Assembly: GCA_039683575.1 (NCBI GenBank)
Contig: JBDKRC010000235.1
Coordinates: 1 to 64,000, forward strand
Reading direction: 5' to 3'
DNA length: 64,000 nt
DNA from: Armatimonadia bacterium
GTDB lineage: Bacteria; Armatimonadota; Zipacnadia; Zipacnadales; UBA11051
In this document: positions 1-20,833 of the stretch, piece after piece
How positions within the stretch are numbered: position 1 is the stretch's first letter
Layout of the letters: each line of letters begins with the position of its first letter
Made by a program: the position numbers and the translations under genes
Notes under the pieces: model-generated
Database searches by the model: none
Told to the model about the DNA's origin: nothing
What the model saw: the letters and a program-made list of their open reading frames with translations, nothing else

Positions 1-1728
1 CAGGATGCTGAAGCCCTTGAAGCTGTCATCCCACTCCAGCACGTTGCTCTCCTGCTGGAGTTGCTGCATTCCCGCTCTGGTCACGGCTACGTCGAGGCCC
101 GTCAGAGCGGATAGGGCCTCTATAGCCTCCTCGGCGCTGCTGACGTTGAGGCTGAGTTTGCTCGCAAGCACTACCGCGCGCAGTAGTCGCCGCTGGTTCT
201 CTGACAGATGCGCCCCGTGACGTGCCTCCACCGAAGTGTAGGCATGGGTGATGGACCCCTGCGCCCCGCCCTCTTCCGAGGTCAGGAGATCCTCCTGCAG
301 ACCTTCCGACCACAGTTCTACCGGGGCGAGGCCGCAACGCGCCCCAGTCTCATCGATGTCATTGTCTTCGTGGCGCGCAAGCGCTTCGCCGAGCAACGTA
401 AGGGCGGAGCGCTCTTGCAGATGCTTGCCAGCGGCACTCAGGTAGAACAGCAGCCATGTGGAGTAGGGAGAGAGAGGCCAACAACCTCTGCGGATCACGG
501 TGTGGAACTGCCCGGGATCGTTCCACAGCCTGTAGTGTGCCGACTGCGGGTACCACTTGCCTATGTTCTCCTGCACTCGCCGCGACTGCGCGACGCTCTC
601 AGCCCCGTCCAGCCACTGAGCCAACTGCGTCGGTTGCCGTTTCTCCATCAGGCTGGCGATTAGCGTTTCCAAGTTGGTGGATAAGTACGACTTCTTGGCC
701 GACTGGTACCGGGTGACATAGCGGACTATCTCGTTGCGCAGTTCCGGTGCGACGCGCTGCACGTAGGCGTTCAGCTCGAACTGGATGAAGCCCACAAAGC
801 ATGCCTCGTCGGAGTGTGATTGCACACCCTCGAAGAGGTCCTGGAGCACACCGTTGCCGGCGATCTGGCTGCGTTCTGTCGCGAACTCGGTGTAGCGTCC
901 AAACTCGTCGAACAGGATCAGGAGACGTCCGAAGGGCCGACCTTCTCCACAATAGGTCCGCGTCACCACACCGATGAGATCGCTGACCGACTCGCCCCCC
1001 AGAGAGCGGATGGGCATTCCCAGCGCCTCGTAGAAATCGTGCACCTGCGCGTAGGTGTGCTCTTCTTGTGCTTGCAGCCTCTGAAGAACCGCGTCCCGGT
1101 CAGGCATATTGCAGCTCGCAAGCAGGTCGCCCACGATGCCGGCGTCAGACATACTGACGAGATTGGCCGCTTGGGCGAAGCGCGGCCTCAGTTCGTCTAG
1201 CGCTTCTGTGTTCAGCCCCTGCTCCCGTACCCGCTCCCCTATCTGCCGAGTGAGTTCAGATGTGAGATCGAAGCTGCGCATGCCGTTGAGGGCGACGACT
1301 AGCGCGGGCCGCAGCTGCTCGGTCAGCAATGCCTTGACCTCGGCGCCGATTGCAGCGTCAGCGGTCTGCAGACGGGACAGTACGGCTGCTGCGGTGGGCG
1401 AATCAGGGGCGGATAGCAGAGTGGCGAGAGCCAGGGCCAGATGGGATTTGCCCGTGCCATAGCCCGCAATGGCAAGCGCGAAGGGCTGAGGCTCAGCGTC
1501 GTAGCAGGCGTGGACGACGGACCGGGCGAAGGTTGCGGTGTCCTGCAGCAGGTGGCCATGCTCGAGCCCAACGTCTCCCTGACTGACACCGTGGTATGTG
1601 GGGCCATGGAAGATGAATGCCTCCGCAGCCGCAGTACTCAACCGTTGGTCCGTCGTGAACCAGTCTAGGCTGACCGCGCCATCGAAGAGGCGGTCGCCGC
1701 GGAACGTCACCACATCCCCCAGTCGCAT
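1..1728 (-). CDS. P-loop ATPase, SspC/BrxC-like (second copy); C-terminus runs off the left edge
   Basis: Absent from the ORF track, consistent with no stop in the window. Hand translation from ATG 1728: MRLGDVVTFRGDRLFDGAVSLDWF...FIFHGPTYHGV...; Walker A AGYGTGKS; Walker B LLILFDEFGRY in the same frame. Follows the DUF4007-like gene by 14 nt. Confidence 0.8.
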   Translation of the reverse strand, partial: MRLGDVVTFRGDRLFDGAVSLDWFTTDQRLSTAAAEAFIFHGPTYHGVSQGDVGLEHGHLLQDTATFARSVVHACYDAEPQPFALAIAGYGTGKSHLALALATLLSAPDSPTAAAVLSRLQTADAAIGAEVKALLTEQLRPALVVALNGMRSFDLTSELTRQIGERVREQGLNTEALDELRPRFAQAANLVSMSDAGIVGDLLASCNMPDRDAVLQRLQAQEEHTYAQVHDFYEALGMPIRSLGGESVSDLIGVVTRTYCGEGRPFGRLLILFDEFGRYTEFATERSQIAGNGVLQDLFEGVQSHSDEACFVGFIQFELNAYVQRVAPELRNEIVRYVTRYQSAKKSYLSTNLETLIASLMEKRQPTQLAQWLDGAESVAQSRRVQENIGKWYPQSAHYRLWNDPGQFHTVIRRGCWPLSPYSTWLLFYLSAAGKHLQERSALTLLGEALARHEDNDIDETGARCGLAPVELWSEGLQEDLLTSEEGGAQGSITHAYTSVEARHGAHLSENQRRLLRAVVLASKLSLNVSSAEEAIEALSALTGLDVAVTRAGMQQLQQESNVLEWDDSFKGFSIL

Positions 1729-1742
1729 GATCCCGCACCTCG

Positions 1743-2573
1743 CTAGATCAGATCGTCGAATACGTGTCTCCAGCCCTCATCGCACGACGCGGCACGGCGG
1801 ACTATCCAGGGCTCCATGTGGCGGTCGACTGTGATGAGCCCCTTGCGCTCGGTCAGCAGGAGTACCTTCTGTGCGTCGCGGCTCTCCCAACCCGGTACGG
1901 CGCACCAGCCGCCCACGGTATCGAGTTCAGTCACAGTGACCTCGGGCCGATTGGGAAAGTGGTCGACCATGACCTGGAGGAGCCAGGCGCCGTAGCCAGG
2001 TGCGAACTCATCTGCGACAGGGGCCGACTTGCGCAGAACCAGGCCTGCCGTCTCCCGCAGCACCCCAGCAGTCGCGAATGCCGCATCATCCTCATACATC
2101 CTTACGAGCGGCCCCACGAGGTTACCGCGGGCTCCGGTGTAGACCAGTGCCAGACGCTCTTCCAGGGCGCTCCGGGGGAACTCCATGCCCAACGCGGTGC
2201 CGCCCGCAACGAAGACCTGGTACCACACGTCGGCCCCACGGAGCGGGCCACAGAGGTGAAAATGCGCAAGCCACTGTGTCACGGCTTCTTTTAGATATGG
2301 GTCTTCAAGAAGCACCGTACGGCCAAAAGGAGTAAGCTCCGGCCGCTTCACCGCGGAGGCTGGTCCCGACAGCGATATCAGGCCCATGCCTCGAGCGTAG
2401 TCAATGATGGCTGGAACCTTGCCGCTGGACTCGCCCATGGGGATTCCGGTCTCGGCGGCGATCTGCTGATATGTACCCGCGGCTCCCGAGGCAGCATAAC
2501 GCAAGAGCGCATTCAGGAAATGCCTCTCCGGTATGAAGGTCTTGTGGAAGTTGCGTGGCAGGCGATCAGGCAT
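1743..2573 (-). CDS. DUF4007 (SspB-like) protein, second divergent copy
   Basis: N-terminal NFHKTF and LLEDPYLKEAVTQWLAHFHL parallel GHQTF and WDPFLEDDASLWLIHW in the 19.7-kb DUF4007 gene; overlaps the upstream stop by 8 nt. Confidence 0.7.
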   Translation of the reverse strand: MPDRLPRNFHKTFIPERHFLNALLRYAASGAAGTYQQIAAETGIPMGESSGKVPAIIDYARGMGLISLSGPASAVKRPELTPFGRTVLLEDPYLKEAVTQWLAHFHLCGPLRGADVWYQVFVAGGTALGMEFPRSALEERLALVYTGARGNLVGPLVRMYEDDAAFATAGVLRETAGLVLRKSAPVADEFAPGYGAWLLQVMVDHFPNRPEVTVTELDTVGGWCAVPGWESRDAQKVLLLTERKGLITVDRHMEPWIVRRAASCDEGWRHVFDDLI

Positions 2574-5500
2574 CTGCGATCCGCTCCCCCAGTGGGGTAA
2601 CCCGCGTGTGGAATGCCTTGGTCTCCAGAGCGCCGGTAAGGGTGTTGAGGCTGGGACCTACGGAGTAGCATTCACCCTTCTGTAGGCGGGCCAGTTTCGC
2701 CGCCCAGTCTTCGGCCTTACCTCCGATGGACCCGGCGATGATTCCGGCGTAGGTGCCAATCTCTGTGTCCACGGGGCGGAAGAAGAGTTTGTGTTCGGCA
2801 TTGAAGAGGCGGTCCCTCTCGTCCTTGCTCAGGTTGCTCAGGTTCTGGGTGGCCAGAATCAGCGAGAAGCCAAACTTCCGACCTTCACGCAGTAGTTGTG
2901 CGAGCGGACTGTCCTCGCGATGGTCGAGGTTCTGCACCTCGTCAAGCACCAAGACACGCGGCACATCCTTCGTGCCACGGCCCCGATAGAACCAGTAGAG
3001 GTCAATGAGTGCAAACTCGGTGATGAGCCGCGAGGTATCGCGCAGGAAGCCCGCCAACTGCAGCACATGACACCTGTGCTCCGGGTCAGTGAACAGGCGC
3101 TCCCAGCTCTCGGGCTGCTCCTGGCCGAACGGGTTCTGGTCGAGGAACGGCCGGATCTTGCTGAGCACACTGCCAGCCGCCTGCCCGGCGGTGCCTCCCT
3201 GTTCAGCGAGTGCCTCCAGCAGGCCAGCAAGATCGCTGAGCGTCATCCCGGTGGGTCCTGCCGATTGTATGCCGGTTAGCACAGCCTGGTACAGTGCCGC
3301 AGTTTGCTGCTCGCCCATCTGGTACACGCCGGCGAACACTCCAGCCACACGCGACGCCGTGTTAATGGGCGATTCCGGAAGCTCCATCTGGCCGATCAGG
3401 TTGGCCTGCTGACGGAAGGGGTTCAGGGGCAGGGGGCTCAGCCGAACGATATGCTGCGTTGGGTGCATCCTGCTCACGAAGTGAGGGTCGAGTTGGTGGT
3501 CAAAGAAGCCGTCGGTGTAGTCCACGATCAGCGAGCTCTGGCCGCTCTGGCCGAGCCCCTGCAGCAGGCACTGGATCGCGTAGGTCTTGCCCATACCAGA
3601 CGCGCCAAAGACGAGGAGATGACGGTTGGCGAGTTCCTCATGACCGAACTCCCAGTAGACTTCGCGTGCTCCATTGACCGACGTGCCGATAAGGATCCGC
3701 TCAGGGACCGATATGGCGACAGGCGCAGCCTCCGGCTGATCTGGCACCGTGGGAACCGCAGCTACAGGTGTTTCCTGGGGCGACGGGGCCTCTATGGGCT
3801 CGGCCTGCCACGTCGATGGTGGTATGACCGGGGCCGCTGCTGTCTGCTCGTCCAGCTCGTCCGCGGTCTCGTCTTCGTCCATCTCGGAGTCCTCGTGGCG
3901 CGCGGCGCGGAAACATAGAGAGCCTCCAAACTCCGCCGCAAGACCGTGCCCCGGCTGACAGATCTTGGGCACAGCGGCGTTGCTGACCGACACCACTCCG
4001 AGCGGCATCTGCTGGCCGAGAATCGAATGGTTCCACTCATCTCCCCAGTCGATGTCCTCCCCTGGCCGGTCAGTCCAGAAGCACACCACGGCTCCTCCCC
4101 AGCAGATATCGTAGTCTCCATCTGTCAGCCGCTCAAGTGCGGCCAGAACGCTCTCACGATTCTCCTGTTGCACGAGGCCCTTGCTGGCGACTAGGCGCTG
4201 CAGTTGCAGCCACCAGTAACGCTGGTCCGGACGTGCATCATCGCCTCCGGCCGCGTCTTCACAACAGGGCAGGAACACCTCGACGAGATGGTCTAGGCCA
4301 TTCTCGAGTTGTAGCCGCGCCTCGTCCAGATAGTAGTCCGGCTGGCGGGCGAGCTTGCACTCAAAGAGCCGCGCGTTGAGCTGCAGCCGTCCGTCCTCAC
4401 TCCGGAGAACCACTAACCAGAGAAGGTCGGGGCGCGTAGAGGTAAGTGAAGTGTCGAACCAATGTTGGTATGCGTCAAGGGAGATCAGCTGGTCGCAGAT
4501 GGCGTCCGCTGGCGCATGTAGGAGCTTCCTAGTCAGGGCGTATGCCATAAAGTCGTGAATGTGCTGTCCGAGCCCCGTAGCTCGTACCAGCGACAGGCCG
4601 GACAACTGCTGGGCTTCTCGCAGCACGCTCTCGGCCACCGTGTCGTAGGTGGCTGCGTCCCAGCCGCCGTAGAGATCCCTGATGGCCGGCTTGAGTCGGC
4701 GCAGAATGTCACTCAGCCGGAACTGCTCGGTTGAGACAGTGTAGTTTGCTTCTCCGTGGGAGCCGACCCCGGATCCGAACCCGATGATCTCGCGCACGGC
4801 GGCGCCGGAGGCGGCGTCCCCATCTCCCGCCCTACAGGACAGCAAGCGCTCGTCCACGCATGGGTCAATGCAGACGACCCAGTCGGCTCTCTGATGTAGC
4901 CCGTCAACCACTGTCTGCCACGGCGCATAGTCTCCGCTACCCATCACCAGGTGATGGGCCTCGGGTACCGCATCGGGATGGCGCAACCGCGCCATGATCT
5001 CCGTGTACTCGCTACCTAGCAGGAACTGGCGGTTACTGAGCACCCGCTCGCGACGCAGCATCTGTCCCGGGTCACGACTGGCACAGAAGGGCTTCTCTAG
5101 CACGGGGAACTTGAGCGTCCTCTTGAGCGCGTAGTACTCGGGGACCGTCTCGAACCTGCCGCCCTCGTCACCAGCGGCCATGAAGCCGTTCAGGATAACG
5201 ACGTCGACATCCAGGCTGGCAAGCAGCGGCAGGAACTGTTGCTCCCGCTCTCGTCTCTTCTGCCCATCGCTTCGCGCCGTCGCCAGCAGGCGGTGTGCCG
5301 CGGAAAGCTCGACACTCCGGTAGTGTTTCAGCGAGGCCTGGCTTTCGGCCGCTTCCCAACGGGCCCGCCACTCGCTGAGCCACGTTTTCACTTCGCCTTC
5401 GTCACCGGACTCGCTGAGGATGGTCACAGACAGGGCATAGGGTGCCCTCCCCGGATCGCGCTTGTCGCACACCTCGCGCAGGTAGCCGTCGAGTGCCGCG

Positions 5501-7875
5501 ATGAGTGGCTGCACGTCGCGGTTCTGGTACACCGCAAGGCTCAGGCCGTCATCGGCTTGTGGGTGCAGCTCCCGGTAGTCGCTCAGGATTCGCCTGATGA
5601 GAGTTGCCTCCCGGCTCTCACGAAACAGCTCGGCATCAGGGATGTCCTCCTCCTCGAAGGCGTCATAGCGCAGCAGCAAGCGGGTCGTCAGGCTGGCCTC
5701 ACCAGGCTCTACGCACCCCAGCCGGTGCACAAACCCTTCGCCGCTCACGCTCGTGTCAAGCTTGCAGTCCTGGTTCACCAGCAGGCCGCAGAGCGGCGTG
5801 TACAGGGAAGCCAGATCGAGGTAGTTGCCCCAGACGATGTTGCGGAAGGATCGTGTGCCTGGAGCCCGCAACTCCCGGGCCGCCAGCCGGGGGAAATACA
5901 CTCGCAGGTACTGGGCCTGCGCCTGGATCATCTCCAACAGCGCTGGATGAAGCAGCGTGACAATCGCGGAGGGTTCGAAACGCTCCCAGAACCACTCGTT
6001 GTCGTCGCGTTTGCGGTCGGCGATGAGGAGGAACGCGCGGAAGAGGAGCGGCCCGAGGAAGCTATGGCGCCCGGTCTCGTCGTGCAGGTAGTAGCGGGCC
6101 GCCTCGCGGTATGCATGGCTCAGAGGCTGCCAGGCGTCCAGCAGGGCCGCGTGGAGCCCGTGGTCACGCGCGTGCATCAGGAACTGCACGTACTGGCGCC
6201 CCAGCTCCTCGATCCGCCACAGCAGAGGGTCACTGGCGGGAAGGCCCGGAGCGTCGAGGAGGTTCAGAACGCGGCTGTCAGGGCTCTCCAGGCCCTGCTG
6301 CAGCACGCGGGTCGTCTCCTCCGCGTCCTTGGCCAGCATAAGCTCTTCGTAGTATGGCACCGTGAAGACAGGCACGTGGCACACCAGCGGATCCGCCATT
6401 GCTCCCGCCGCCCATTCCAGCATCTCGTCTGCGATGCGGTAGGGATGGATCGCCGGGAGGCGCCAGGCGAACTGCCGCTCCACCGGCTTGCCCAGTCCAT
6501 CCCCATCGATGCTGACAGAGAAAACGAGCGAAGGCTCGGCGCTTCCCGCTGGCACACACCTGACCCAATCGCCGGTCAGCGCCACCTCCAGAGCCACCCC
6601 CCGGTCATCTCCCACCAGGTTGCTTAGCTCCAGACCGTCACGCAGCCATTCCTCGACACCGCCGAGGAAGCGGGCCAGCATCTGCCCTGCGTTCCACTCC
6701 TGGTCCTTCTTGGTGTCTCCCCCCAGGTCGTGCTTGAACTCGCTTGTGCGGATGCTAAGGCTCACCAGTGCTTCATGCGGCACAAGCCCTGCGCCTGCAG
6801 CCTCAGCCTTGTAGCTCTCCAGGGTCCGCCAGAGGCCCGTCAGCAGAACGTCGAGTGGGCCCCCGCTAAGCTTGCTCACCGTGTCGCGAGTCCTGGGCTT
6901 GCGGGGGCCCTTGAACCCGAGAATCTCATCGCGGATCGCCACGTAGTCGCAGCCCAGCAGGCGACCACGCAGTTCCGCACGGTTGCTCTGCGCGTACTCC
7001 TGAACTGCCTGCACGAACTGCCGGTTGTCCGCGAAGTCGCCCTTGGCGTCGGGAGAGAACCAGTCCTGTTCCGGCTGGTTCCCTTTCTCCTGGAGAAACG
7101 CGTCGATGGCTCTGAGTGCCTTGTCGCGAGGGCGTGCCTCCATGAAAGCATCGTAGGAGTAGAAACCGACTGCGTCATCGAGATATGGGCCGAAAGAGAC
7201 GTGGCTGCCGAAGCGGTAGCCTGTGAAATGTGGCAGCCTGTGCAGACCGAGCGAGCGTAGCAGTAGTCTCTCAGCGTCACGACCATCCTGGCAGGCCGCC
7301 AGGTCCATCGTCTCCAGCAGGCTGCTAACTTGCAGAATGTCTGCCAGTCCCCGATCTACCAAAGGCTTGAGTACCTCGTCGAAACGCTGGTACGTGTCCG
7401 TCTCGTAGGCGATATGCGCGCCGGTCAGAACCTCCCGCACCCAGGGCGTGAAGCTGCCCTCCATTTCCTGCCCCCACACCACCTCCGGGCCGCAGTGGTG
7501 AAAGTCTGCGAGGCCGCTGCGGTCGGTTATCAGGTCCACCCCCACCAGGACGGTCAAGGGACCTAGTCCGTTGCGGACCGCCGTCAGGCTGCCCTGGTAC
7601 TCACACCATTCATCTCGCTCCTCGATCCGCGCCGCTGCGCTTCGCTCGGCTTCTCGAACCGGCTGCCCCCACTGCTTCCGCAGCTCTCTGGCTATCTTGA
7701 ACAACGGCCGTGGGAGCCCTGGGCCTGCCAGCCACTCGTCCTCCAGCAGCCGGCCGACTTCCAGTGTGGCCTCGGCGGGCAACGCCGGAATGACCACCAG
7801 GACAGCGTCATCCGTTGCCTGTCCGGCGGCCTGATCGCGGATGTAGCGGCATACCGAACGCGCGAAGAGCTTCAT
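2566..7875 (-). CDS. 1769-aa SspH/DptH(DndH)-like protein with C-terminal HerA/VirB4-type ATPase
   Basis: NRHLLVFGASGMGKT (Walker A), VLVLDEVQNL (Walker B), LREGRKFGFSLILATQ; PD-(D/E)xK-like RPDLLW...FECK before the ATPase; ATGA overlap with the previous gene. Confidence 0.8.
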   Translation of the reverse strand: MKLFARSVCRYIRDQAAGQATDDAVLVVIPALPAEATLEVGRLLEDEWLAGPGLPRPLFKIARELRKQWGQPVREAERSAAARIEERDEWCEYQGSLTAVRNGLGPLTVLVGVDLITDRSGLADFHHCGPEVVWGQEMEGSFTPWVREVLTGAHIAYETDTYQRFDEVLKPLVDRGLADILQVSSLLETMDLAACQDGRDAERLLLRSLGLHRLPHFTGYRFGSHVSFGPYLDDAVGFYSYDAFMEARPRDKALRAIDAFLQEKGNQPEQDWFSPDAKGDFADNRQFVQAVQEYAQSNRAELRGRLLGCDYVAIRDEILGFKGPRKPRTRDTVSKLSGGPLDVLLTGLWRTLESYKAEAAGAGLVPHEALVSLSIRTSEFKHDLGGDTKKDQEWNAGQMLARFLGGVEEWLRDGLELSNLVGDDRGVALEVALTGDWVRCVPAGSAEPSLVFSVSIDGDGLGKPVERQFAWRLPAIHPYRIADEMLEWAAGAMADPLVCHVPVFTVPYYEELMLAKDAEETTRVLQQGLESPDSRVLNLLDAPGLPASDPLLWRIEELGRQYVQFLMHARDHGLHAALLDAWQPLSHAYREAARYYLHDETGRHSFLGPLLFRAFLLIADRKRDDNEWFWERFEPSAIVTLLHPALLEMIQAQAQYLRVYFPRLAARELRAPGTRSFRNIVWGNYLDLASLYTPLCGLLVNQDCKLDTSVSGEGFVHRLGCVEPGEASLTTRLLLRYDAFEEEDIPDAELFRESREATLIRRILSDYRELHPQADDGLSLAVYQNRDVQPLIAALDGYLREVCDKRDPGRAPYALSVTILSESGDEGEVKTWLSEWRARWEAAESQASLKHYRSVELSAAHRLLATARSDGQKRREREQQFLPLLASLDVDVVILNGFMAAGDEGGRFETVPEYYALKRTLKFPVLEKPFCASRDPGQMLRRERVLSNRQFLLGSEYTEIMARLRHPDAVPEAHHLVMGSGDYAPWQTVVDGLHQRADWVVCIDPCVDERLLSCRAGDGDAASGAAVREIIGFGSGVGSHGEANYTVSTEQFRLSDILRRLKPAIRDLYGGWDAATYDTVAESVLREAQQLSGLSLVRATGLGQHIHDFMAYALTRKLLHAPADAICDQLISLDAYQHWFDTSLTSTRPDLLWLVVLRSEDGRLQLNARLFECKLARQPDYYLDEARLQLENGLDHLVEVFLPCCEDAAGGDDARPDQRYWWLQLQRLVASKGLVQQENRESVLAALERLTDGDYDICWGGAVVCFWTDRPGEDIDWGDEWNHSILGQQMPLGVVSVSNAAVPKICQPGHGLAAEFGGSLCFRAARHEDSEMDEDETADELDEQTAAAPVIPPSTWQAEPIEAPSPQETPVAAVPTVPDQPEAAPVAISVPERILIGTSVNGAREVYWEFGHEELANRHLLVFGASGMGKTYAIQCLLQGLGQSGQSSLIVDYTDGFFDHQLDPHFVSRMHPTQHIVRLSPLPLNPFRQQANLIGQMELPESPINTASRVAGVFAGVYQMGEQQTAALYQAVLTGIQSAGPTGMTLSDLAGLLEALAEQGGTAGQAAGSVLSKIRPFLDQNPFGQEQPESWERLFTDPEHRCHVLQLAGFLRDTSRLITEFALIDLYWFYRGRGTKDVPRVLVLDEVQNLDHREDSPLAQLLREGRKFGFSLILATQNLSNLSKDERDRLFNAEHKLFFRPVDTEIGTYAGIIAGSIGGKAEDWAAKLARLQKGECYSVGPSLNTLTGALETKAFHTRVTPLGERIADA

Positions 7876-12500: not shown

Positions 12501-14218
12501 GCCAAGCCCCCGCCGGTCTTCTCCAGGTCCGTCGAGCAGGCAAACGGCGGCCTGCCCGTAAGCAGCTCGAAGAGAACCACCCCGAGACTGAACAGGTCGG
12601 CCGCCTCAGTGAGGTCCCCTCCGTAGTAGACCTCGGGGGCGATGTAGGGTGATCTGGGCAGTCTCTCGGCGTCCAGAATCACCGTCTGATGCTCCTCCTC
12701 CAGACGATAGGAAAGGTCGAAGTTGGTCAGCTTCGGCACCCCGCCAGCCATCACGACGTTCTCGGGGGAGAGAGCACGATGGATCACGTCTCGCTCGTGA
12801 CTTGCCTGCAGACCCTGAAGCACTCCCTCTGCCACTGTGAGAGCGTCTTGTTCCTGCAGCGGTTCGCGATCCTGAAGCCGGTCTCTAAGCGTTCCACTCT
12901 CCGACCAGTCACTGCCCTCAACCAGGTAGCCCATCTCGCTGGGAATGCGCCAGACCTTGAGAATGTTCGGATGATCCCCGATGGCCAGCACAGATTCGAG
13001 CGCCCCTTGGGCTCGTCTCCAGAGCTCCTCTCTCTCCTCCCCCGAGCCGGGCGGAGGCGGGAAGAACACGCGAAGGCGGCTCAGTCTGCGGCGCCCAGCG
13101 CCGGTTGGCCGGGCAATCACCTCGGCGCGGTCCTCACTCTGGTACAGCCGCTCCACCACCTCATACCCGGGGAACGCGTAGTCGCGGGGCGGGTTGGGGG
13201 TGGTGAGTTCCTCCAGGTAGTCACAGAAGGCCTTGACCTGCGCTTCCTGCAGAATGGTTCCCTTGCGTTCGCGTTGCCGCTTGAGGTAGGCGATCAGTGA
13301 CTTAGTGCCATCGAAGGTAGGATTGCTGGTAGTCGTGTCCGGGTCTGCAGCCCCGTTCACGGTGGCTTCAGGGTTCGTCAGCACTACGACCGACTCCACG
13401 AATACTTCGGGGAATATGGCGAAACCACGGTCGTACATCCCACGAAGCAGCTTGGCCTTGTGCGAGTTGCCAAGGTGCGGATCGGGACGACACGAGGAAC
13501 GGTTCAGCAGCCAGGAGTAGGGACGAATGTCGATCTGCCCGCTCCAATGCTTCAGTTCCACCACGTAGATACCGAACGGGCACACCAGGATCAGATCAGT
13601 CTCAAAATAGCGATTGGACTGGCGGTCGTGGATCTGACGGTTTGCCAGGGCATAGCCAAGTTCCTGGGTAGTCAGGCGCTTGCAGATGTCCTCGATCGCC
13701 GCGGCCTCGTGGGGGAATGCCCCGGGTGATGTCCCAGTCACTATGGTGCCCGCGGGGCCGCCAGCCGCATTGCTCCCCTCCCTGACAGTCGTCAGGCGGC
13801 TGATGATCTCATAATCGACCCGTTGGCGGGTTGCCTCCACTTGAAGAAAATCGAATACTTCGCCGTCCAGTTGAGCGTGGCTTACGAGCTCGCTGAGAGC
13901 TGCCGGCGAGCCAACGGAGGTGGTGCGAGCCAACTCAGCTTCCTTGCCATCACACGGCACAAGTTCCCAAAAGCTGGAGCTGCGGAGGTGGAAGAACGGT
14001 GCCAGCGGCCGGTCTCGATCATTGGGCCCGGCATACGTGGCGAATACCTCGGTGAAGCACTCCCGGAACTCTGCGTTGAAGAACACGCATCCGTCCCGGA
14101 CGCGCCCCCTCCGGATGAGCTCAATCACGGCCAGCATAGCTAAGTACTTGTGCGGCTTGAACATAGGGCCAGGCTGCCCCAGATCCCTGAGCTCGCTGAT
14201 GAAGTCGTCGATGGACAT
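9557..14218 (-). CDS. 1553-aa fusion: PT sulfur-binding-domain-like, NERD nuclease, pseudokinase, Ser/Thr kinase, SspF/DptF-like P-loop region
   Basis: PHKYLAML...PFFHLRSSSFWEL (SBD-like); ETDLILV...VVELKHW (NERD); HRALSPEN/NFD (kinase 1, degenerate); HNDIKPEN/DFG (kinase 2); VVLTGHAGDGKS. Confidence 0.8.
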   Translation of the reverse strand: MSIDDFISELRDLGQPGPMFKPHKYLAMLAVIELIRRGRVRDGCVFFNAEFRECFTEVFATYAGPNDRDRPLAPFFHLRSSSFWELVPCDGKEAELARTTSVGSPAALSELVSHAQLDGEVFDFLQVEATRQRVDYEIISRLTTVREGSNAAGGPAGTIVTGTSPGAFPHEAAAIEDICKRLTTQELGYALANRQIHDRQSNRYFETDLILVCPFGIYVVELKHWSGQIDIRPYSWLLNRSSCRPDPHLGNSHKAKLLRGMYDRGFAIFPEVFVESVVVLTNPEATVNGAADPDTTTSNPTFDGTKSLIAYLKRQRERKGTILQEAQVKAFCDYLEELTTPNPPRDYAFPGYEVVERLYQSEDRAEVIARPTGAGRRRLSRLRVFFPPPPGSGEEREELWRRAQGALESVLAIGDHPNILKVWRIPSEMGYLVEGSDWSESGTLRDRLQDREPLQEQDALTVAEGVLQGLQASHERDVIHRALSPENVVMAGGVPKLTNFDLSYRLEEEHQTVILDAERLPRSPYIAPEVYYGGDLTEAADLFSLGVVLFELLTGRPPFACSTDLEKTGGGLAEVEAEALVGVSARARALVSDLVRQEPSQRLATAAAVLARLAGDDTPPRLPVLNPVLEPGTRNDLYEIECLIKQGVEAQLYRAVGPRGRLVVVKLFGRDVPQWHGLEEQQFAGAVHHPGIVRVENHSTWEGDGRFYIAFQRLSERSLRNEISAGLLPDLDQFAAWATQLLEALAALHGHRGDDGAEPILHNDIKPENILLTDSRLPVIVDFGCASFPKIAPYQGTEGYVPPDLRSGQDRDYCEQGDLFALGVTLFEWYCGRTPYTQLQVGVQPAPLPPERRALGPELELWFAQAVATEANKRFGTAAEMLRALQRALPQVEAEQVEASAETPAADLAPLGVPEREEAALTPIRDVQPTRTDREAPTEIARGDQPEQIAPFSGPQLEQEQPEGNAFVAYLNSLHCRRGGSKNSLAESQATNPLFGSVQVAHPLADVINELLLGETRTHVVLTGHAGDGKSIILLQCLKRFRNQHLHRPLQAPLERREDSQVEALDTSLVKDLSEWDGEERAELLAEMLAAGGPRFLLVSNSGTLLETFRQHEQALKADWRETESALLTALEQAGPRPLHFHGVPLQIINLSKMDNLPLVERLFRRLLEPANWDDCEGKACRSGCPIRQNAALLQQHPGLVTQRLLLAYRRMYEYGARLTLRQASAHLAYMLTSGLSCAQAASMVARSASSPGPEYMFFNRFFGDDGRNIDLPALQLQAVRLARAQGFGRRLCAAWERRLWQSIETRNTPLVIEGLQDVFQQLCDAGAGRGITEEEAQAVAREQARRVLFFLYAFDEDESERYLTAYLDSPMIIRHAAWQQATQLDYRERKLLQTRLFQVLQEHLTGVRLPEGPLPDERLHMTLSRRSSQVRQSAQIVLTSVPTSDFDLSLQTVDGGSGAKRRELELTSEHGLEPVCLVLNLSFLDYVMARQRGEISRQLQACYADRLERFKGQLLHAYPPETGPDLILVRLRTNRMFHQQRFTVSEHRLEVD

Positions 14219-14231
14219 ACCGAATGGCTCC

Positions 14232-15386
14232 TCAAGGTCTGGTCGAGGTCAGCGCGACCGCCGTTGCCAATTCGCCTACCGCGACGGACACATCTTCCGC
14301 AGTGTTGTAGCGACCGAATGAGAGACGAATCGTCTGTTCCGCCTGGGCCCGCGGGAGCCCCATTGCCAGTAGCACGTGGGATGGCGCCAGAGTGCCTGTG
14401 CCGCAGGCCGAGCCCTGGCTGATGCAGATGCCGCTCGCTCGGGAGATGACCAAGTCTGAGGCGCTACCATGGATCGTGATGCTACTGGTCCCAGGCAACC
14501 GCGGAGCACCTGTCCCGTTGACGGCCATACAGTCCAGACGCCCGGCCAATTCCGCCTCAAACCGGTCGCGCAACGCAGCCGTACGATTGGGCTCAGAGGC
14601 GAGGTCGGCGCTGCAAAGGCGGCAGGCTCTCCCGAAACCGACTATGCCTGGTACGTTCAGCGTGCCAGGGCGCAGACCGTCCTCTTGGCCTCCGCCGAAC
14701 TGCAGCGGCGTTAGCAGCGAGCGCATCTCGCCGTCACGGACGTAGAGAGCGCCGACCCCTTTGGGCCCATAGAGTTTGTGCGCGCTGAAGGAGGCCAGAT
14801 GCACTGGTAGCGCATGCAGGTCCAGCGGGACCTTGCCCAGCACCTGGGCGCCATCCGTGTGCATAAAGGCACCGCACCTCCTGGCCAGCTCGCCTATCTC
14901 CGCTACCGGCTGAACCGTCCCAACCTCGTTGTTACCACCCTGCACGGAAACCAAGAGGGTCTTCTCGTCGATCAGAGACGCCGCAGCCTCAAGATCCACA
15001 CTGGCGTTTCGGTCCACGGGCAGCAGGACCACCTGAAAGCCCTGTTCGGCCAGATAGTCGCAAGGCCCAAGGATGGACTTGTGCTCCACCGCGGATACGA
15101 TGATCTTGCGCCGACCGGGGTTAGAGCGAGCCAAGCCCAGCAGGGCCAGGTTGTTGCTCTCTGTGGCCCCGGAGGTGAAGATGATCTGCCCCGGGCTACA
15201 GCCGGCCAGCGCAGCAACTGCTTCGCGGGCGGCCGCCACGGCAGTAGCGGCAGCGCGCCCCATCACGTGCGGGCTGCCGGCATTGCCGAACTCAGTGGTC
15301 AGGAAAGGCAGCATCGCCTCCACGACCTGGGGGGCGCAGCGCGTAGTGGCGTTACAGTCGAGATAGACAGGCGCCTGTCGTTGCAT
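14232..15386 (-). CDS. sspA: Cysteine desulfurase (IscS/NifS; SspA/DndA role)
   Basis: YLDCNATT, FTSGATESNN, SAHKLYGPKG (PLP lysine), SQGSAC (catalytic Cys); located inside the PT operon. ATG taken at 15386. Confidence 0.92.
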   Translation of the reverse strand: MQRQAPVYLDCNATTRCAPQVVEAMLPFLTTEFGNAGSPHVMGRAAATAVAAAREAVAALAGCSPGQIIFTSGATESNNLALLGLARSNPGRRKIIVSAVEHKSILGPCDYLAEQGFQVVLLPVDRNASVDLEAAASLIDEKTLLVSVQGGNNEVGTVQPVAEIGELARRCGAFMHTDGAQVLGKVPLDLHALPVHLASFSAHKLYGPKGVGALYVRDGEMRSLLTPLQFGGGQEDGLRPGTLNVPGIVGFGRACRLCSADLASEPNRTAALRDRFEAELAGRLDCMAVNGTGAPRLPGTSSITIHGSASDLVISRASGICISQGSACGTGTLAPSHVLLAMGLPRAQAEQTIRLSFGRYNTAEDVSVAVGELATAVALTSTRP

Positions 15387-15457
15387 ACAGCAAGTCCTCA
15401 AGGAGATCTCCGCCAGCCTGGCGGGTGCCCACCACGGTTAGCTCCCGATGGGTTCCT

Positions 15458-16288
15458 TCAGAGAGCGCAGATCAGGCAGCCCCGATCTGCGCTGTCGTCC
15501 GCATCGTCGAGTACCTCGCCAAGCGAGACACCGGCGCGGAAGCCGCCTGCACGTTCGCGACGCTGCTCGAACTCAGCCTCGATCTGTGCTACGCGTTCCG
15601 GTCGCGAGAGCTCCTCCAGGCTTTCACCCTGCACCCAGGTGTAGCGCTGTCCTGTGTCAGTGTCGGCCTTCTCATACTCCATCGCCTGCTTGAAGAGACC
15701 CGGGTGTTCTCTCATCAGCCCAACCCACTCGCGGCGTTGCTGGAAGAAGCAGAAGTAGCACCCCGAACGCGAGCGCCAGCGGTAGTAGTCTGGGAGGCCC
15801 AGGCCGCTCTCCTCCAGTATCCGCAGCACACCGGCTCTGTTAATGCCCTCCTCGATGAACGGGAAGCACGCGACTATGTTGGGCTTCGTTGACAGATAGC
15901 CCTTCCTGTGCCGCTCGTCTGCACGAATGCCCACGTAGGTGACGGCGGGGGTCTCACCGATGAACTTCTCAAATGGCTTCAGTTTGAGATACTCCGTGCA
16001 CCACCGGATCTGCGGTGATGGCAGATAGCCACGACGTATGCTGAGGAGGTCATCGAAGCCCATCCCGTCGTGCTTCAGGCGGATGATCGGTCTGCCGAGA
16101 TAGACTTCCAACCGGTCGAGGTAGTCGTACGTCTCGTCAAGCTCCTTGTCCGTATCACAGAACACGTACTCCATATCCGGCATGCGGTCACGCAGGTGGA
16201 TGGCCAGCGCTGTGCTGTCCTTGCCGCCTGAGAGCGAGAGGATATGCCGGGTGTTTCCGGCTTGCTGAGGCGTGCCGCTGTCACTCAT
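15458..16288 (-). CDS. sspD: PAPS-reductase family protein (SspD-like)
   Basis: SLSGGKDS PP-loop, RWCT, GIRADE, SRSGCYFCFFQ and terminal CLIC; ATG 16288 overlaps the upstream stop. Confidence 0.88.
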   Translation of the reverse strand: MSDSGTPQQAGNTRHILSLSGGKDSTALAIHLRDRMPDMEYVFCDTDKELDETYDYLDRLEVYLGRPIIRLKHDGMGFDDLLSIRRGYLPSPQIRWCTEYLKLKPFEKFIGETPAVTYVGIRADERHRKGYLSTKPNIVACFPFIEEGINRAGVLRILEESGLGLPDYYRWRSRSGCYFCFFQQRREWVGLMREHPGLFKQAMEYEKADTDTGQRYTWVQGESLEELSRPERVAQIEAEFEQRRERAGGFRAGVSLGEVLDDADDSADRGCLICAL

Positions 16289-19200
16289 CTTCTGTGGTGT
16301 CTCCGATCTTGCCCGCGGCAAGCTTGAGGGCCGCCTTCACGACATGTGCAGGCAGCTTCGCTATCGCGGGATTGAGCGCTTTCATGATCTTGTCCGACAG
16401 AGCCTGCGCGCGCTGCATCTCGGCGGGCAGGAGTTCCGGCAGGTCCAACGTGGTAACCGAGGCGCTCCGCATCGTAGCGGCTGCGCTTCTCAGCAGAGCC
16501 CCCACCATCTCCGCTGCTTCCGGGAAACGCTTGCGGTCGAGGTCGCTCCAGTTGCGTGGGGGGCGTTGAGCGACAAGCGCAAGCACCGTCTCGACCCCCT
16601 CAGCTGTGTCGTCGACCTCCTGCATACGCGCCAGCAGAGCCGCTAACCGAGGTTCTCTCACCCACGGCCGTAGGCGGTCGCCGAGGCCTCGCAGCTCATC
16701 CCAGCCCGCCTCCCCTGCTGGTAAGTTGCAGGCGCGTAGTAGAGTGTCACGGGCCGAGGCGATGGCTGTAGGCGCGACTGCCCCCCATTCCCGAAGGCAC
16801 CCGTTAAGGCGCTCAAAGAACTTCTGCACCTGGCCGGTTTCCGTCTCGTCAGCCCCGAACGCAGGGAAGCCCAGCGCGCCAGGGAGATCCGCGAAAAGCA
16901 GTTGCTCCGGGGATCGTGCCGCGGCAAAGGCCTCGCGCAGAGCAACTACCGGCGCGCTCAGTTCCTGAGTGTGCCAGGCCAGTTCCGGGAGGCTGCGCAC
17001 CATCCGGAACAAGGCCCGCACCACCGGCAGAGTCGCTGAGTTCACCTGCAGACTGCGAGCCAGTCGCCCTACCACCTCCGCGCGGGCGCCTGTAACCTGC
17101 CCACCCGCTATGGCGTACAGCTCCGGCCTGCGCATAAGCACTTCGAAGTCCGCGATGCCGACCTCCGGAAGGAATGTGCCTTCGCGGTACAGTGTCGTCT
17201 CATCTGGGTAAGCCAGCATAAAGGCACACAGCAGCACCGGGTGCAGGCCCTCTGGTACGCCAATGGGCGGGGCGGCCAAGCCGGCGAAGAGTCCATCGAG
17301 TTGGACCGGCTCCAGCCCATCGGCCAGAATCTGCCGGTCTAGGAACTCCCAGACCGAAGCGAGAGCAGCATCGCTCGTACGGTCGGGAGGGTGGAAGCCC
17401 CAGCGGCACGAGTCGTCCTCTCGGTGCAAGCCGGTGACCAGAAGGACGGACTCGTACATGCTGCGCTCAGGAGGGTAGCCTTCAAGCCCCAACAGGGGCT
17501 CCCCCGCTCGCGTCAGCATCCTCTCGATCAGGTTGCGGCGGGCAGCGGTTGCGGCCGCGGACAGAGTCCTCCTTGCGATGAGCTCGTTGCGGATGCGTGG
17601 TGACTTGGGGAAGAGGCTGTCACAGACGTCTGAGACCAGCTTGGACACGTCAGTGGGTGTGCGGACGGCCTTCTGCTGTCCGCCCCAGAACCAGAGACAC
17701 TGGCTGCCACGCGGCGCCGGCCGTGGATCCAGGAGGCCATCGAGGTCCCGCAGCAATACCTGCTCCGCCTCGCTGATGCGGATTGAGATCTCTCGACGGG
17801 CCACTCGGTCGTCGCGAAGCTCTGGGGTGTTGTCCCAGACCCAACGCAGCGCAGCTAGCTCCTGAACAGCCGCTCGCAGCTCACCTATCTCTTGCGGCAC
17901 CGCCACCAACAGGTCGTGCCGCGCCCCGGCACCGGCCGTGGCGACGGCGACGAACTCATCAGACCGCTTGAGCGAATAGGCCAGGCACACTGCGACGTGG
18001 GCGGGGGCCGTCTCGGAGGCTTTCCAGTCCAGAGACAGTTCAGATGGGTCGTCGAGGTAAGCCACGGCCAAGTGCCGCAAGGCGCCAGTCTCGAAGCTGT
18101 GCCGGCGTGCGACCAAAGGACGCGGGGGCAGGTAGTGCCTGATGTTCTCCGCCAGGCTGAGCCTGTCCCGCGTGTGGGTAGCGCCCTGCTCAAGACGCTC
18201 ATCGATGTCGACGTCACTGCCTTCCCAGATCTGAAAGGCGTCTGTGAATGTGCGGAACGTCAGGACAGACTTCTCACGCAACTGAGCGAGGCTGTCTTCT
18301 AGTTTTGCCGGCGGCTTGGTCTGGTCTGAGAGAACGAGTGAAAGTACCTGCTGATGGGCCTGTAGGTGGCTGAACTCGCCCAGAGCATTGAGGATCCCCG
18401 TTGACTTCACGAGCGCCTTGTGGAGATCGGTCAGGTCGCTTCTGCGGTCAAGCACGTCCACAGCCTCAAGCCAACGCTTCGCCTGCGGGTGCCGGTACAG
18501 GCCGGTCCCGAAGTTCGCGACGAAGTAGTCGAAAAGGTCAGGTAGCCGGACGAAGGCAGGCGTCCCCCCCTCCGCTGTGTGAGCCCGGAGAAAGTCCTGC
18601 AAGGCATACGGTTCCTGGCTGCTCAGATAGGCGAAGAGAGAGCGTTCGTTCTGCGCAAAGCGCCGGAACAGGTAGGGCAAGGCCACTAACGTAACGGGAT
18701 GGAGTGGATAGGCTCTGACGGCCAGGCGCTCGAAGTCGCGGGGGGGCATCCCCGGAGGAGCGACGACTGGTGCGGCGGCGCGCGCCACCGCCTGCACTCG
18801 CTTCGCCAGTGACGCCGGCAGTTCCCGCCCGGTCGGCCGGAGAGCGCTCGCGATCATCCGCACAACCTGATCAACCGGCTCGAGGAACGGAACGTCGTGG
18901 AAGCGCCCGCCTATCTTCTCCCATTCGCGACGGGTTACCGCATCCAGGTGCTGGCCGTATTCCTCGAACGCCTGATGCAGGAAGCCGAGGAAGAGAACTG
19001 GCTCGACGCCGCTGCGGCTGGCGTATTCGGCGAGTTCCTGCAGCACGAACACATCACCGCGCCGAGGGTCTCGGGCTGCGTACTCGAAGAGCTTGCCCAG
19101 CTCGTCAACAATGACTAGGAGGCCTGTGTAACCTTGTGCTCGGGCAACAGCGGCCAGCTCCTGCAGGGCACCGACGACGTCCCGGCTGTCGGCAAAGGCC

Positions 19201-19709
19201 CCCGCTTGCAGGGCCTTCAGCAGCGCGGCCAAACGCTTCCTTAGTCGCGCGGTAGCGGCGCCCTCCAGCCCTGCGATAGCAGCCAACATGCCCTGTAGCA
19301 GGCAGGCCGCAGCCGGAGCCCGCCGGGCCGTCACCAGCACTGGCAGCATAGTGCCGTTGCCATTGGCGCGAAGGCATCCTTGAGCAAGAGTCTCGGCGAG
19401 GTCGGGGGCAGCCAGCAAAAGCTTCTGCCTCGCCTGGTCCCCTGCGGCGTCTTTGAGGCAGAGCAGGCGCGTCAGGAACACGGCGAAGGCTGATTTGCCG
19501 ACGCCATAGGGGCCGGTAATCGTCCAGGCTCGCGCTACGGAGCCCTCACTTAGCCCCTCTGCGAGACGGTGCAAGGCCTGCCGTGCATTGGCCGTCAGGA
19601 CATAGTCGCCGTTAGTACCGTTGCCGCGCGCATCCTGCTCGAGGCTAACCGACCGCAGGAACCTACGCCCGACCTCCACGTACTGATCCAGCGACTTCTG
19701 CATCTCCAT
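16281..19709 (-). CDS. sspC: 1142-aa P-loop ATPase (SspC-like)
   Basis: ITGPYGVGKS Walker A, LLVIVDELGK Walker B, AYPLHP and AQNERSLF motifs; lies between the DUF4007 and PAPS-reductase genes. Confidence 0.8.
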   Translation of the reverse strand: MEMQKSLDQYVEVGRRFLRSVSLEQDARGNGTNGDYVLTANARQALHRLAEGLSEGSVARAWTITGPYGVGKSAFAVFLTRLLCLKDAAGDQARQKLLLAAPDLAETLAQGCLRANGNGTMLPVLVTARRAPAAACLLQGMLAAIAGLEGAATARLRKRLAALLKALQAGAFADSRDVVGALQELAAVARAQGYTGLLVIVDELGKLFEYAARDPRRGDVFVLQELAEYASRSGVEPVLFLGFLHQAFEEYGQHLDAVTRREWEKIGGRFHDVPFLEPVDQVVRMIASALRPTGRELPASLAKRVQAVARAAAPVVAPPGMPPRDFERLAVRAYPLHPVTLVALPYLFRRFAQNERSLFAYLSSQEPYALQDFLRAHTAEGGTPAFVRLPDLFDYFVANFGTGLYRHPQAKRWLEAVDVLDRRSDLTDLHKALVKSTGILNALGEFSHLQAHQQVLSLVLSDQTKPPAKLEDSLAQLREKSVLTFRTFTDAFQIWEGSDVDIDERLEQGATHTRDRLSLAENIRHYLPPRPLVARRHSFETGALRHLAVAYLDDPSELSLDWKASETAPAHVAVCLAYSLKRSDEFVAVATAGAGARHDLLVAVPQEIGELRAAVQELAALRWVWDNTPELRDDRVARREISIRISEAEQVLLRDLDGLLDPRPAPRGSQCLWFWGGQQKAVRTPTDVSKLVSDVCDSLFPKSPRIRNELIARRTLSAAATAARRNLIERMLTRAGEPLLGLEGYPPERSMYESVLLVTGLHREDDSCRWGFHPPDRTSDAALASVWEFLDRQILADGLEPVQLDGLFAGLAAPPIGVPEGLHPVLLCAFMLAYPDETTLYREGTFLPEVGIADFEVLMRRPELYAIAGGQVTGARAEVVGRLARSLQVNSATLPVVRALFRMVRSLPELAWHTQELSAPVVALREAFAAARSPEQLLFADLPGALGFPAFGADETETGQVQKFFERLNGCLREWGAVAPTAIASARDTLLRACNLPAGEAGWDELRGLGDRLRPWVREPRLAALLARMQEVDDTAEGVETVLALVAQRPPRNWSDLDRKRFPEAAEMVGALLRSAAATMRSASVTTLDLPELLPAEMQRAQALSDKIMKALNPAIAKLPAHVVKAALKLAAGKIGDTTEDE

Positions 19710-20833
19710 TATGAGCCATTTCCTGCGCCGAAGTAGCGATCAAGCAACGCCAAGGCGTCGAATTCGCGACGGCGGTAGATCTGCTTCAGGCCTGCCGTCT
19801 CATCAACAGAGACTGCGCCGTCGGTCAGTTCCTCGAGCTCCTCTACGTACTCGATGAGGCTGTTCTCATCCAGCTTGAAGGCCTGACCGGGACTTCCTTT
19901 TCCGTACAGGCACTGCTGGATGCCCAGTGTGCTCTGGGTCTCGCGAGTACGACTGAAGTGCTGGTCAAGGGCAAACGCAAACACGGGCGCCGGCAGCGAC
20001 GGCTTCGGGCCGATGCCAAAGGCGTACAGGTCTCCGTCAGCAGATGGCTGGATCAGCCGGAGGGATAGCAGGGGACAGTCGAAGCTCTCCTCGGGCAGCG
20101 CTTCTCCGATCTCGGCGCGCGGGGCCGCATAGGTGCGAAGAAAGCAGTCGAAGTCGCGGGACAAGGACGAGCGCGCAACCTTCAGCGCCCCCTTCTCTGC
20201 AACAGAGGCCAGATGGTCTACAGCTTCACGCCGGGTGAAATCGGGACGATGGTAGTGACAGAAGAGCAGCTGCCACGTGGTGCAGACACTTGGGTTTGAG
20301 ACCAGCATCCAGTGGATGAGCCAGAGGGAGGCGTCGTCCTCAAGGAATGGGTCCCAGCCTTCTGGCAACAGCAGAAGGCGCGCCATAGGTGTGGGCTGCA
20401 GTGGCTGCGCTTTGCCTCGCGGCGCACCCGGCACCGGTTCTATGAGCTGCGTCACTGTGCACCAATGTCTTATGCTCTGCACCATATTCTTGCCCACCCC
20501 CAGGTGAACGAGCGCATCCTCATCGGAGAAGATGGTTGCCCGCTGCTCGACGCCCCTTACCCCCTTCTCAAGCCAACCATAGCGGAAAGCAAAGGTCTGG
20601 TGGCCGGAGAAACGATAGGACACCTTGCCCTGCGTGGTCTCATTACTATCGGCAATGATCATCTCGTCAGCTCCGGGACGGGGCTTGCCTGCCGCAGCAG
20701 CTAGGGGGAGGTAGACGGTCGTGCAGAGACCGACGGGGAAGAACGGTGTATCCCCCTCGTAGACCGCAACCTCGGCTGAAGAAGGCGCAATGGCTGTTTC
20801 GACGGCTGTCGAGCCCGGACCTTCCTCTCCCAT
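19709..20833 (-). CDS. sspB: DUF4007 family protein (SspB-like); true start may be ATG 20662
   Basis: FSGHQTFAFRYGWLEKG, LGVGKNMVQSIRHW, WDPFLEDDASLWLIHW, DCPLLSLRLI. Confidence 0.88.
   Translation of the reverse strand: MGEEGPGSTAVETAIAPSSAEVAVYEGDTPFFPVGLCTTVYLPLAAAAGKPRPGADEMIIADSNETTQGKVSYRFSGHQTFAFRYGWLEKGVRGVEQRATIFSDEDALVHLGVGKNMVQSIRHWCTVTQLIEPVPGAPRGKAQPLQPTPMARLLLLPEGWDPFLEDDASLWLIHWMLVSNPSVCTTWQLLFCHYHRPDFTRREAVDHLASVAEKGALKVARSSLSRDFDCFLRTYAAPRAEIGEALPEESFDCPLLSLRLIQPSADGDLYAFGIGPKPSLPAPVFAFALDQHFSRTRETQSTLGIQQCLYGKGSPGQAFKLDENSLIEYVEELEELTDGAVSVDETAGLKQIYRRREFDALALLDRYFGAGNGS

Follow-up and report, generated by a model that had tools for sequence, protein, structure and literature searches.

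Among the described systems closest to the one reported here is that of Vibrio anguillarum FF-93, SspABCD-SspFGH (Wang et al. 2021, PMC8092258), in which a phosphorothioate (PT) writer is directly followed by genes for F, a protein with a Walker A motif, G, and H, a protein of ~1800 amino acids (aa) with an FtsK/HerA-like C-terminus. Tested SspABCD systems carry out single-strand PT modification and leave a CpsCA mark. How FGH-type modules recognise PT marks is poorly understood (PMC12914056), and in a 2021 survey ~84% of sspBCD loci were without a known restriction partner (PMC8092258). Here we describe a nine-gene operon at positions 1-20833 of a window formed by the first 64 kb (64,000 nucleotides, nt) of contig JBDKRC010000235.1 (C235) in the Armatimonadia bacterium assembly GCA_039683575.1 (6.2 Mb, 352 contigs), window position 1 being the contig end. 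Its writer and F-G-H genes have the same sizes and order as those of Vibrio; its F protein bears a domain predicted to read PT DNA, and a second pair of B/C-type genes (B2 and C2) follows H. From sequence profiles, motifs, structural models and gene order we consider it probable, at about 0.6, that this operon encodes an entire PT-based restriction-modification system of the Ssp type, serving in defence and belonging to a widespread subtype as yet without a name.

Open reading frame (ORF) calls tile window positions 1-20833 with nine co-directional genes, all on the minus strand, as are all further features of the window and of contig C161 (L160) given with coordinates. A preliminary description of this DNA had noted this run of genes, together with a prevalence of overlapping stop and start codons, and the longest-ORF calls do overlap at 5 of the 8 junctions, the remaining gaps being 13, 14 and 56 nt. 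The first four genes match the Ssp writer families strongly. Gene 1 (sspB, 19709..20833, 374 aa as the longest ORF) matches the full Pfam DUF4007 model at 281 bits (cut-off 27) and PADLOC SspB with an E value of 1.5e-88; the alignment of homologues begins near residue 70, which makes M58 at 20662, preceded by GGAG and yielding 317 aa, the probable true start and the longest ORF an over-call. Gene 2 (sspC, 16281..19709, 1142 aa), a P-loop ATPase of the BrxC/DUF6079 type with Walker A GPYGVGKS at 66 and Walker B LVIVDE at 198, aligns with positions 3-1051 of the 1054 of PADLOC SspC at 1057 bits. Gene 3 (sspD, 15458..16321, 287 aa), of the PAPS-reductase or PP-loop kind, scores 363 bits against PADLOC SspD, matches Pfam PAPS_reduct and has SGGKDS at 31-36. 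Gene 4 (sspA, 14232..15401, 389 aa), a cysteine desulfurase, scores 263 bits against Aminotran_5 and 450 bits against PADLOC SspA, with SAHK at 206 and GSAC at 330. By these profiles and motifs genes 1-4 are each clearly assignable to their families and constitute a predicted SspB-C-D-A PT writer with its own desulfurase, as had been proposed.

Genes 5-7 show the three-gene SspFGH layout next to the writer, and the best named match, or the only one, is PADLOC SspF for gene 5, SspG for gene 6 and SspH for the middle of gene 7; the similarity is partial, at 50-90 bits, rather than full-length. The most informative of the three is gene 5 (9557..14218), a long SspF-like protein of 1553 aa in which a sulfur-binding domain (SBD), a NERD nuclease domain, a pseudokinase, a kinase and an F-type P-loop core follow one another. 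The SBD (residues 1-150, 13769..14218) is a predicted reader of PT DNA. A profile of its family (28 members) matches PDB 8h0l, the SBD of Hga bound to PT-DNA, with an E value of 6.3e-37. Its AlphaFold2 (AF2) model, with a predicted local distance difference test (pLDDT) score of 88, superimposes on the same structure with a template modelling (TM) score of 0.82-0.83 and a root-mean-square deviation of 2.2-2.4 Å, and the SBDs of SprMcrA and ScoMcrA rank next. The sulfur pocket of SBDHga is formed by H25, K26, L75, P76 and H79 (PMC10602919), with which gene 5 H23, K24, L72/A73, P74 and H77 align; P74 does not vary within the family, and conservation reaches at least 90% for P22, H23 and K24. Fold and pocket residues of an SBD are thus kept at the N-terminus of gene 5, and a preference for PT-DNA is predicted. 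This domain, like the tenth gene taken up below, goes beyond the preliminary description.

The NERD domain of gene 5 (residues 179-281, 13376..13684; Pfam NERD 48.6 bits) displays D208, E221 and K223. It is followed by the pseudokinase (residues ~350-615, 12374..13171), whose Pfam Pkinase stretch (412-607) has no catalytic Asp, with HRA at 479-481 and NFD at 499-501 in place of HRD and DFG, and by an active-looking non-RD Ser/Thr kinase (residues 635-905, 11504..12316) with K666, HNDIKPEN at 762 and DFG at 782, which matches PADLOC PD-T4-6, mad6 and PglW. The Pfam Pkinase score of gene 5 reaches 176 bits, which bears out the multidomain kinase effector of the preliminary description. The NERD domain and both kinases together match PADLOC PglW with an E value of 2e-52, and residues 191-751 align with nearly the whole NCBIfam MAD6 model (NF047741), although the score of 349 bits falls short of the required 460. 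The F-type core (residues 960-1553, 9560..11341), with Walker A GHAGDGKS at 1024, matches positions 1-291 of the 560 of PADLOC SspF (E value 9e-27); against PADLOC DndF it reaches merely 13.8 bits (E value 0.005), which does not place it in that family. Where the 5' end is complete (58 homologues), the long form accounts for 19 and a short form of ~760 aa, made up of SBD and F core, for 35, the other 4 being below 700 aa. The SBD and the F core are the sole parts of gene 5 common to the short form, and the NERD-kinase insert is optional in the clade. The architecture is not new, because the same chain is known from DndF proteins, some of which have a winged helix-turn-helix (wHTH), NERD, inactive kinase and active kinase fused to the F core (PMC10853773, Rakesh et al. 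2024), and the account of SBDHga mentions in passing homologues of the SBD that "have acquired kinase domains" (PMC10602919).

Gene 6 (7872..9557, 561 aa) is SspG- or MAD7-like. It starts at the ATG at 9557, which overlaps the gene 5 TGA by a single base; the longest ORF (7872-9713) is probably over-called. PADLOC SspG matches its C-terminal third only (E value 4.5e-14, model positions 345-498 of 498), no PADLOC DndG match was found that would place it in that family, and its nearest ESM Atlas clusters partly belong to PF26611 (MAD7), with a structural TM score of 0.60 to a MAD7 cluster. Gene 7 (2566..7875, 1769 aa) resembles the SspH/DndH nuclease-translocases: PADLOC DndH matches its C-terminus (E value 4e-60) and SspH its middle (E value 6e-18, model positions 799-1070 of 1561), and it further matches PDB 7es4, the ATPase domain of DptH (E value 2e-8), and HerA (4d2i). 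A PD...ExK nuclease motif formed by P1149, D1150, E1172 and K1174 (residues 1149-1174, 4354..4431) is followed by a HerA/FtsK ATPase (residues 1387-1742, 2650..3717) with Walker A GASGMGKT at 1424 and Walker B VLVLDE at 1641, which is the DndH order of a restriction endonuclease (REase) and then a HerA/FtsK ATPase; in an alignment of 41 members of the family, conservation of the nuclease residues and of both Walker motifs is 95% or higher. The preliminary description had named F-G-H-like effectors with a HerA-type ATPase as the last of them; these are recognisable in the profile matches, and genes 5-7 are a distant branch of SspFGH/DndFGH. Gene 7 also contains two strongly conserved glycine-rich motifs, R..IIGF.SG.G.HG..N.T.STE and SGLSL.RATG, at residues ~1028-1050 and ~1092-1101 (window 4690-4800 and nearby). 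They fall within a segment of H that has been described for DndH as an inactive methyltransferase, and in this clade the region looks too conserved for a dead domain.

The two genes after H had been put forward as additional B- and C-like genes, and both matches recur here at low strength. Gene 8 (B2, 1743..2573), a short protein of 276 aa, has a weak and partial Pfam DUF4007 match (E value 5e-6). The SspB structures 6juf and 6lb9 supply the top three PDB matches of its AF2 model (pLDDT 72; E values 4-6e-5) and are the sole matches below an E value of 0.001, with TM scores of ~0.4, a value usual for a flexible three-module protein. Its family comprises at least 650 clusters from many phyla, with ~60% identity at full length. 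No gene 8 relative was found on viral contigs (IMG/VR), and the gene 8 search of plasmids (PLSDB) yielded one weak DUF4007 match only. Gene 9 (C2, 1..1728) is represented in the window by the N-terminal 576 aa of a 1428-aa ATPase of the BrxC/PglY/SspC type, open at the contig end. It has Walker A AGYGTGKS at 88 and Walker B LILFDE at 270, and a weak, partial PADLOC SspC match in its first 430 residues (E value 3.8e-13); its hhalign comparison with gene 2 gives a probability of 69% over 171 columns around Walker B, and a full-length homologue falls among DUF6079/BrxC/PglY clusters of the ESM Atlas at 0.97-0.99. Neither gene 8 nor gene 9 receives a Pfam name at the cut-offs or an NCBIfam match, and profile searches of the gene 6, 8 and 9 families against PDB sequences gave no significant match. 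On these matches gene 8 is best regarded as a second SspB-fold protein and gene 9 as a BrxC/PglY-type AAA+ ATPase, the pair being a constant part of the subtype.

When one genome per species was scanned with the gene 8 alignment, 88 stretches matched and 74 could be confirmed, giving 72 loci in Verrucomicrobiota, Planctomycetota, Desulfobacterota, Bacillota, Chloroflexota, Acidobacteriota, Gemmatimonadota, Cloacimonadota, Latescibacterota, Bacteroidota, Pseudomonadota and other phyla. Gene 7 lies upstream at 64 of the 65 testable loci (exception L070) and gene 9 downstream at 63 (exceptions L059 and L070), and the same order recurs in 60+ species-level genomes across many phyla; cultured carriers are Desulforhabdus sp. 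TSK, Syntrophorhabdus aromaticivorans UI and Desulfobacter latus AcRS2. An independent, gene 6-anchored scan of metagenomes matched 577 stretches and confirmed 291, and in the best 80 of these 291 writer genes are upstream at 48 of 49 testable loci (exception L157) and gene 8 or 9 follows gene 7 at 45 of 45. SspC is directly upstream in all five long-form genomes checked; the order B-C-D-A-long F is also found at L076 and L078, C-D-A-long F at L077 and B-C-D-long F at L075 and L079, while SspA is present at 15 of the 23 loci with enough upstream sequence. The F core gave two weak matches in PLSDB, which proved to be plasmid loci with canonical SspFGH; in these, from Sphingomonas (L073) and Chlorohelix (L074), there is no second B/C pair. 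The Sphingomonas genes match PADLOC SspF, SspG and SspH over their full length (599, 541 and 1814 bits). The proposal of a distinct, larger subtype stands, the pair being present at all testable gene 6-anchored loci and absent from the two canonical ones, with the caveat that the kinase-F fusion is optional and already in print. Of 401 genomes searched within the phylum, the same two contain gene 6 and gene 8, and none of three genomes of the same genus has either, a distribution that fits a horizontally acquired island.

Several loci depart from the common arrangement. In L013, L017, L021 and L045 there are insertions between genes 7 and 8 or 8 and 9, that at L013:10932-12008 being a DDE transposase, and in L092 genes 8-9 are carried on an inversion; these are decaying or rearranged copies. 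Two short-F loci have a large gene directly after C2, encoding a protein of 1132 aa with an AAA domain and a MAD6-like kinase in one case (L033:15215-18613) and a protein of 1507 aa with a phosphoribosyltransferase domain in the other (L022:15138-19661), so that where F is without a kinase this function may be supplied in trans. In the canonical SspA-B-C-D-F-G-H order of the Chlorohelix plasmid, a "sensor histidine kinase" and a 714-aa hypothetical gene are interposed between sspC and sspD (L074, 8442-13015).

Set beside described systems, the locus combines features of several. In Vibrio three genes suffice (PMC8092258) and F is a Walker A protein, whereas in the present clade F has an SBD, to which NERD and kinases may be joined, and B2 and C2 always follow. 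With the DndFGH modules that have an N-terminally extended DndF (PMC10853773) it shares the chain of domains in F and an H composed of REase and HerA/FtsK, differing in that the partner writer is Ssp and not Dnd. For HNH nucleases linked to Dnd the same paper recognises the SBD to be a wHTH, but in the text covered it does not call the N-terminal wHTH of DndF an SBD. The SBD-containing PT-dependent restriction enzymes Hga, SprMcrA and ScoMcrA (PMC10602919) share fold and pocket residues with the first 150 residues of gene 5; in these enzymes, whose hosts are free of PT, the SBD is fused to a nuclease of the HNH or PD-ExK kind, whereas here it is borne by a P-loop protein of a multi-subunit machine in a host that writes PT. 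The kinase, middle protein and HerA-like ATPase of the MADS core, MAD6-MAD7-MAD8 (Maestri et al. 10.1101/2023.03.30.534895; PMC13662399), form a comparable trio, and PADLOC mad8 matches the C-terminus of gene 7 (E value 8e-16), the mark here being PT and not N6-methyladenine (m6A). We rejected membership of MADS, as the MAD6 score is below its cut-off and none of mad1-5 (methylase, specificity subunit, OLD-like pair) is among the nine genes. NERD, pseudokinase and kinase follow one another as in PglW of type 2 BREX/Pgl, gene 9 is like BrxC/PglY/DUF6079, and gene 8 belongs with DUF4007, which has been equated with the BrxA-type triple (w)HTH (PMC12839542, Rakesh and Krishnan 2026). In contrast to BREX, the effector here is REase-HerA and modification falls to a separate Ssp writer, and B/C-type genes therefore occur twice. 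Profile searches gave no PglX/BrxX methyltransferase match in the nine-gene operon and no PglZ match in the nine genes or the five ORFs that follow gene 9 on contig C161 (see below), and for want of PglZ membership of BREX was rejected. The BRC system, in which PglZ, DUF6079, STAND, DUF4007, HerA, GNAT and TGT are combined (PMC12839542), was likewise rejected, there being no PglZ, STAND, GNAT or TGT.

We propose that SspB-C-D-A would mark host DNA with PT, that the SBD on F would read this mark directly so that marked DNA is spared, and that H would translocate on and cut unmarked DNA. B2-C2 would be not a second writer but a scaffold that loads the restriction complex on DNA or scans for it, a counterpart of BrxA/BrxC in BREX, or of PglY together with the wHTH triad that PglW carries; BrxA/BrxC-type proteins have been proposed to load on and scan DNA (PMC12839542). 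The NERD nuclease and the kinase would act as optional accessory back-up or regulatory effectors, as the authors of the cited accounts proposed for such domains. In line with PT reading by F, SBDHga is reported to bind the Ssp-type CpsCA mark (PMC10602919).

To place the B2-C2 pair on the writer or the restriction side, we compared pairwise distances (Spearman) across the gene 6-anchored loci in which all eight genes are near full length; these number 23, or n=20 after removal of three with identical gene 6, and SspA was excluded because it is not universal. Three groups emerge, with correlations of 0.90 for SspB with SspC, 0.81-0.89 among F core, G and H, and 0.84 for B2 with C2. The pair correlates best with the F core (0.75 for B2, 0.83 for C2), then with G and H (0.56-0.64), then with SspB/SspC (0.37-0.40; with SspC 0.38 for B2 and 0.40 for C2) and least with SspD (0.22-0.36); in the bootstrap the difference "F core minus SspC" is 0.35 (0.16-0.55) for B2 and 0.42 (0.18-0.64) for C2. 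B2, C2 and SspD are also the most conserved proteins, with mean p-distances of 0.47-0.50 (0.47 for gene 8, 0.50 for gene 9), and SspB (0.61) and SspC (0.66) the most divergent. Because its sequence divergence tracks gene 5 and not the writer B and C, we infer that the pair belongs to the restriction side, and the distances suggest a conserved mechanical role with the restriction complex in preference to a second writer specificity module. On a rival reading, genes 8-9 would be a second targeting pair of the writer, recruiting the single SspD and SspA to a second motif or DNA state so that two kinds of PT mark arise. The SspB fold of gene 8, the SspC/BrxC-like gene 9 with its intact Walker motifs and the near-constant presence of writer genes at gene 6-anchored loci would all suit that idea. 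Yet the divergence of the pair tracks the F core, a specificity module is not expected to be far more conserved than SspB/SspC, and the pair occupies the 3' end of the operon, behind H, and, among the 65 testable gene 8-anchored loci, is never apart from gene 7 save at the partial locus L070, all of which makes a second writer pair improbable in our estimation.

The polarity of PT sensing is the more serious question, since all characterised SBD proteins cut PT-DNA (PMC10602919), and PT binding by the SBD might either inhibit the machine or activate it, as in SspE. If the latter, the SBD would tether or activate the machine on the PT marks of the host, and PT binding would trigger the nuclease, the kinase or an abortive response to invaders; PT marks would then not simply protect DNA. 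Hga restricts CpsCA-modified DNA (PMC10602919), SspE is reported to be PT-stimulated, and domains of the NERD and kinase types commonly act as effectors for back-up or suicide (PMC10853773). The tested SspFGH, however, damages non-PT DNA and is toxic without its writer (PMC8092258), and gene 7 has the REase plus HerA layout of DndH; we hold activation by PT to be unlikely. Far less credit is due to the thought that an orphan Ssp writer and a separate HerA/FtsK "capture" system, equipped with an ATPase of the ORC/Cdc6 type, are chance neighbours in a defence island. It draws on the frequent uncoupling of DndFGH from PT writers and on the existence of HerA systems with ORC/Cdc6 ATPases and multi-wHTH proteins (PMC10853773), as well as on the strain-specific region in which the locus lies, genes 6 and 8 being missing from the three genomes of the same genus; against it, genes that overlap or nearly abut have kept their order across many phyla, and a PT-reading SBD on F would tie the restriction half to PT, so that coincidence is very improbable. 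The proposal of a complete system in which PT spares host DNA has its own weaknesses. The equivalence of genes 5-7 to the tested Vibrio system is indirect because they match the PADLOC SspF, SspG and SspH models only partly (89, 50 and 62 bits). The ATPase of the F core is possibly inactive, its LLVSN being read as Walker B-like. By length a few members, the 4 of 58 complete F genes below 700 aa, are without the SBD, and L020 and L027 match the F core only. The 80 metagenome loci are close relatives of 39-55% identity, so that their gene order holds for the clade and not for every SspG-like gene. The loci compared by distance are related and not independent, with the writer always present too, and the role given to B2-C2 is drawn from co-occurrence, position and these correlations.

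The break in gene 9 could be closed within the assembly, the remaining 852 aa lying on contig C161 (L160:7449-10007). A full-length homologue aligns by its residues 2-577 with window 1-1731 and by residues 578-1422 with the end of C161; tblastn of genes 1-9 against the assembly did not recover the C161 part, which the full-length homologue did. The pieces on C235 and C161, sharing one terminal base, form a single stop-free frame of 1428 aa, full-length homologues being 1420-1449 aa, and at the assembly break (window 1 / L160:10008) no residue is missing relative to them. Beyond it, 26 nt past the gene 9 stop, lies a tenth gene of 491 aa (L160:5948-7423) that matches TIGR04096, a DNA phosphorothioation-associated putative methyltransferase, at 583 bits (cut-off 150). 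Just two of the fetched loci, L049 and L052, have a homologue of this methyltransferase behind gene 9; in L044 it is encoded on the opposite strand, and on the Sphingomonas plasmid it comes after canonical SspH. The protein is best seen as an accessory to the system. Further along C161 come a 142-aa ORF and then an SbcD-like metallophosphoesterase (424 aa) with an SMC/Rad50-like ATPase (909 aa, weak LmuB matches) at L160:899-4899, which may be a separate defence pair. A promoter and terminator scan of window 1-20000 found sites no more numerous than in shuffled sequence. To the right of the operon, at a distance of 18-21 kb, are a C-5 cytosine DNA methyltransferase (38757-39863) and a tyrosine integrase (40763-41896), and most ORFs at 21-47 kb are without a Pfam match, consistent with a mobile or strain-specific island.

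We found no description of a DUF4007 plus BrxC-like pair as part of an FGH module, nor a statement that the N-terminal domain of F is an SBD, in the literature covered, which did not extend to subscription journals or, for the pair, to the supplement of PMC10853773. The clade adds to the known repertoire a conserved gene pair that is unnamed in the PADLOC v2, NCBIfam and Pfam profile sets, and in the SBD on F it offers a visible reader. Some of the "orphan" ssp loci, especially those of uncultured anaerobes, probably belong to it. A tentative extension, for which we would claim somewhat less than an even chance, is that the clade is a natural chimera of an Ssp writer, a kinase-nuclease-HerA effector of the DndFGH/MADS type and a BrxA-BrxC pair of the BREX/Pgl type, in which the pair and the SBD together make up a dedicated reader that patrols DNA for sulfur in its backbone. 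As components of Ssp/Dnd, MADS and BREX/Pgl are linked here in one operon, a BrxA/BrxC-type role becomes testable by simple deletions. If such a chimera is indeed what the clade represents, it would be the first FGH-type system in which the reader of self and non-self can be located in sequence, and would provide a simple setting in which to learn the function of BrxA and BrxC.

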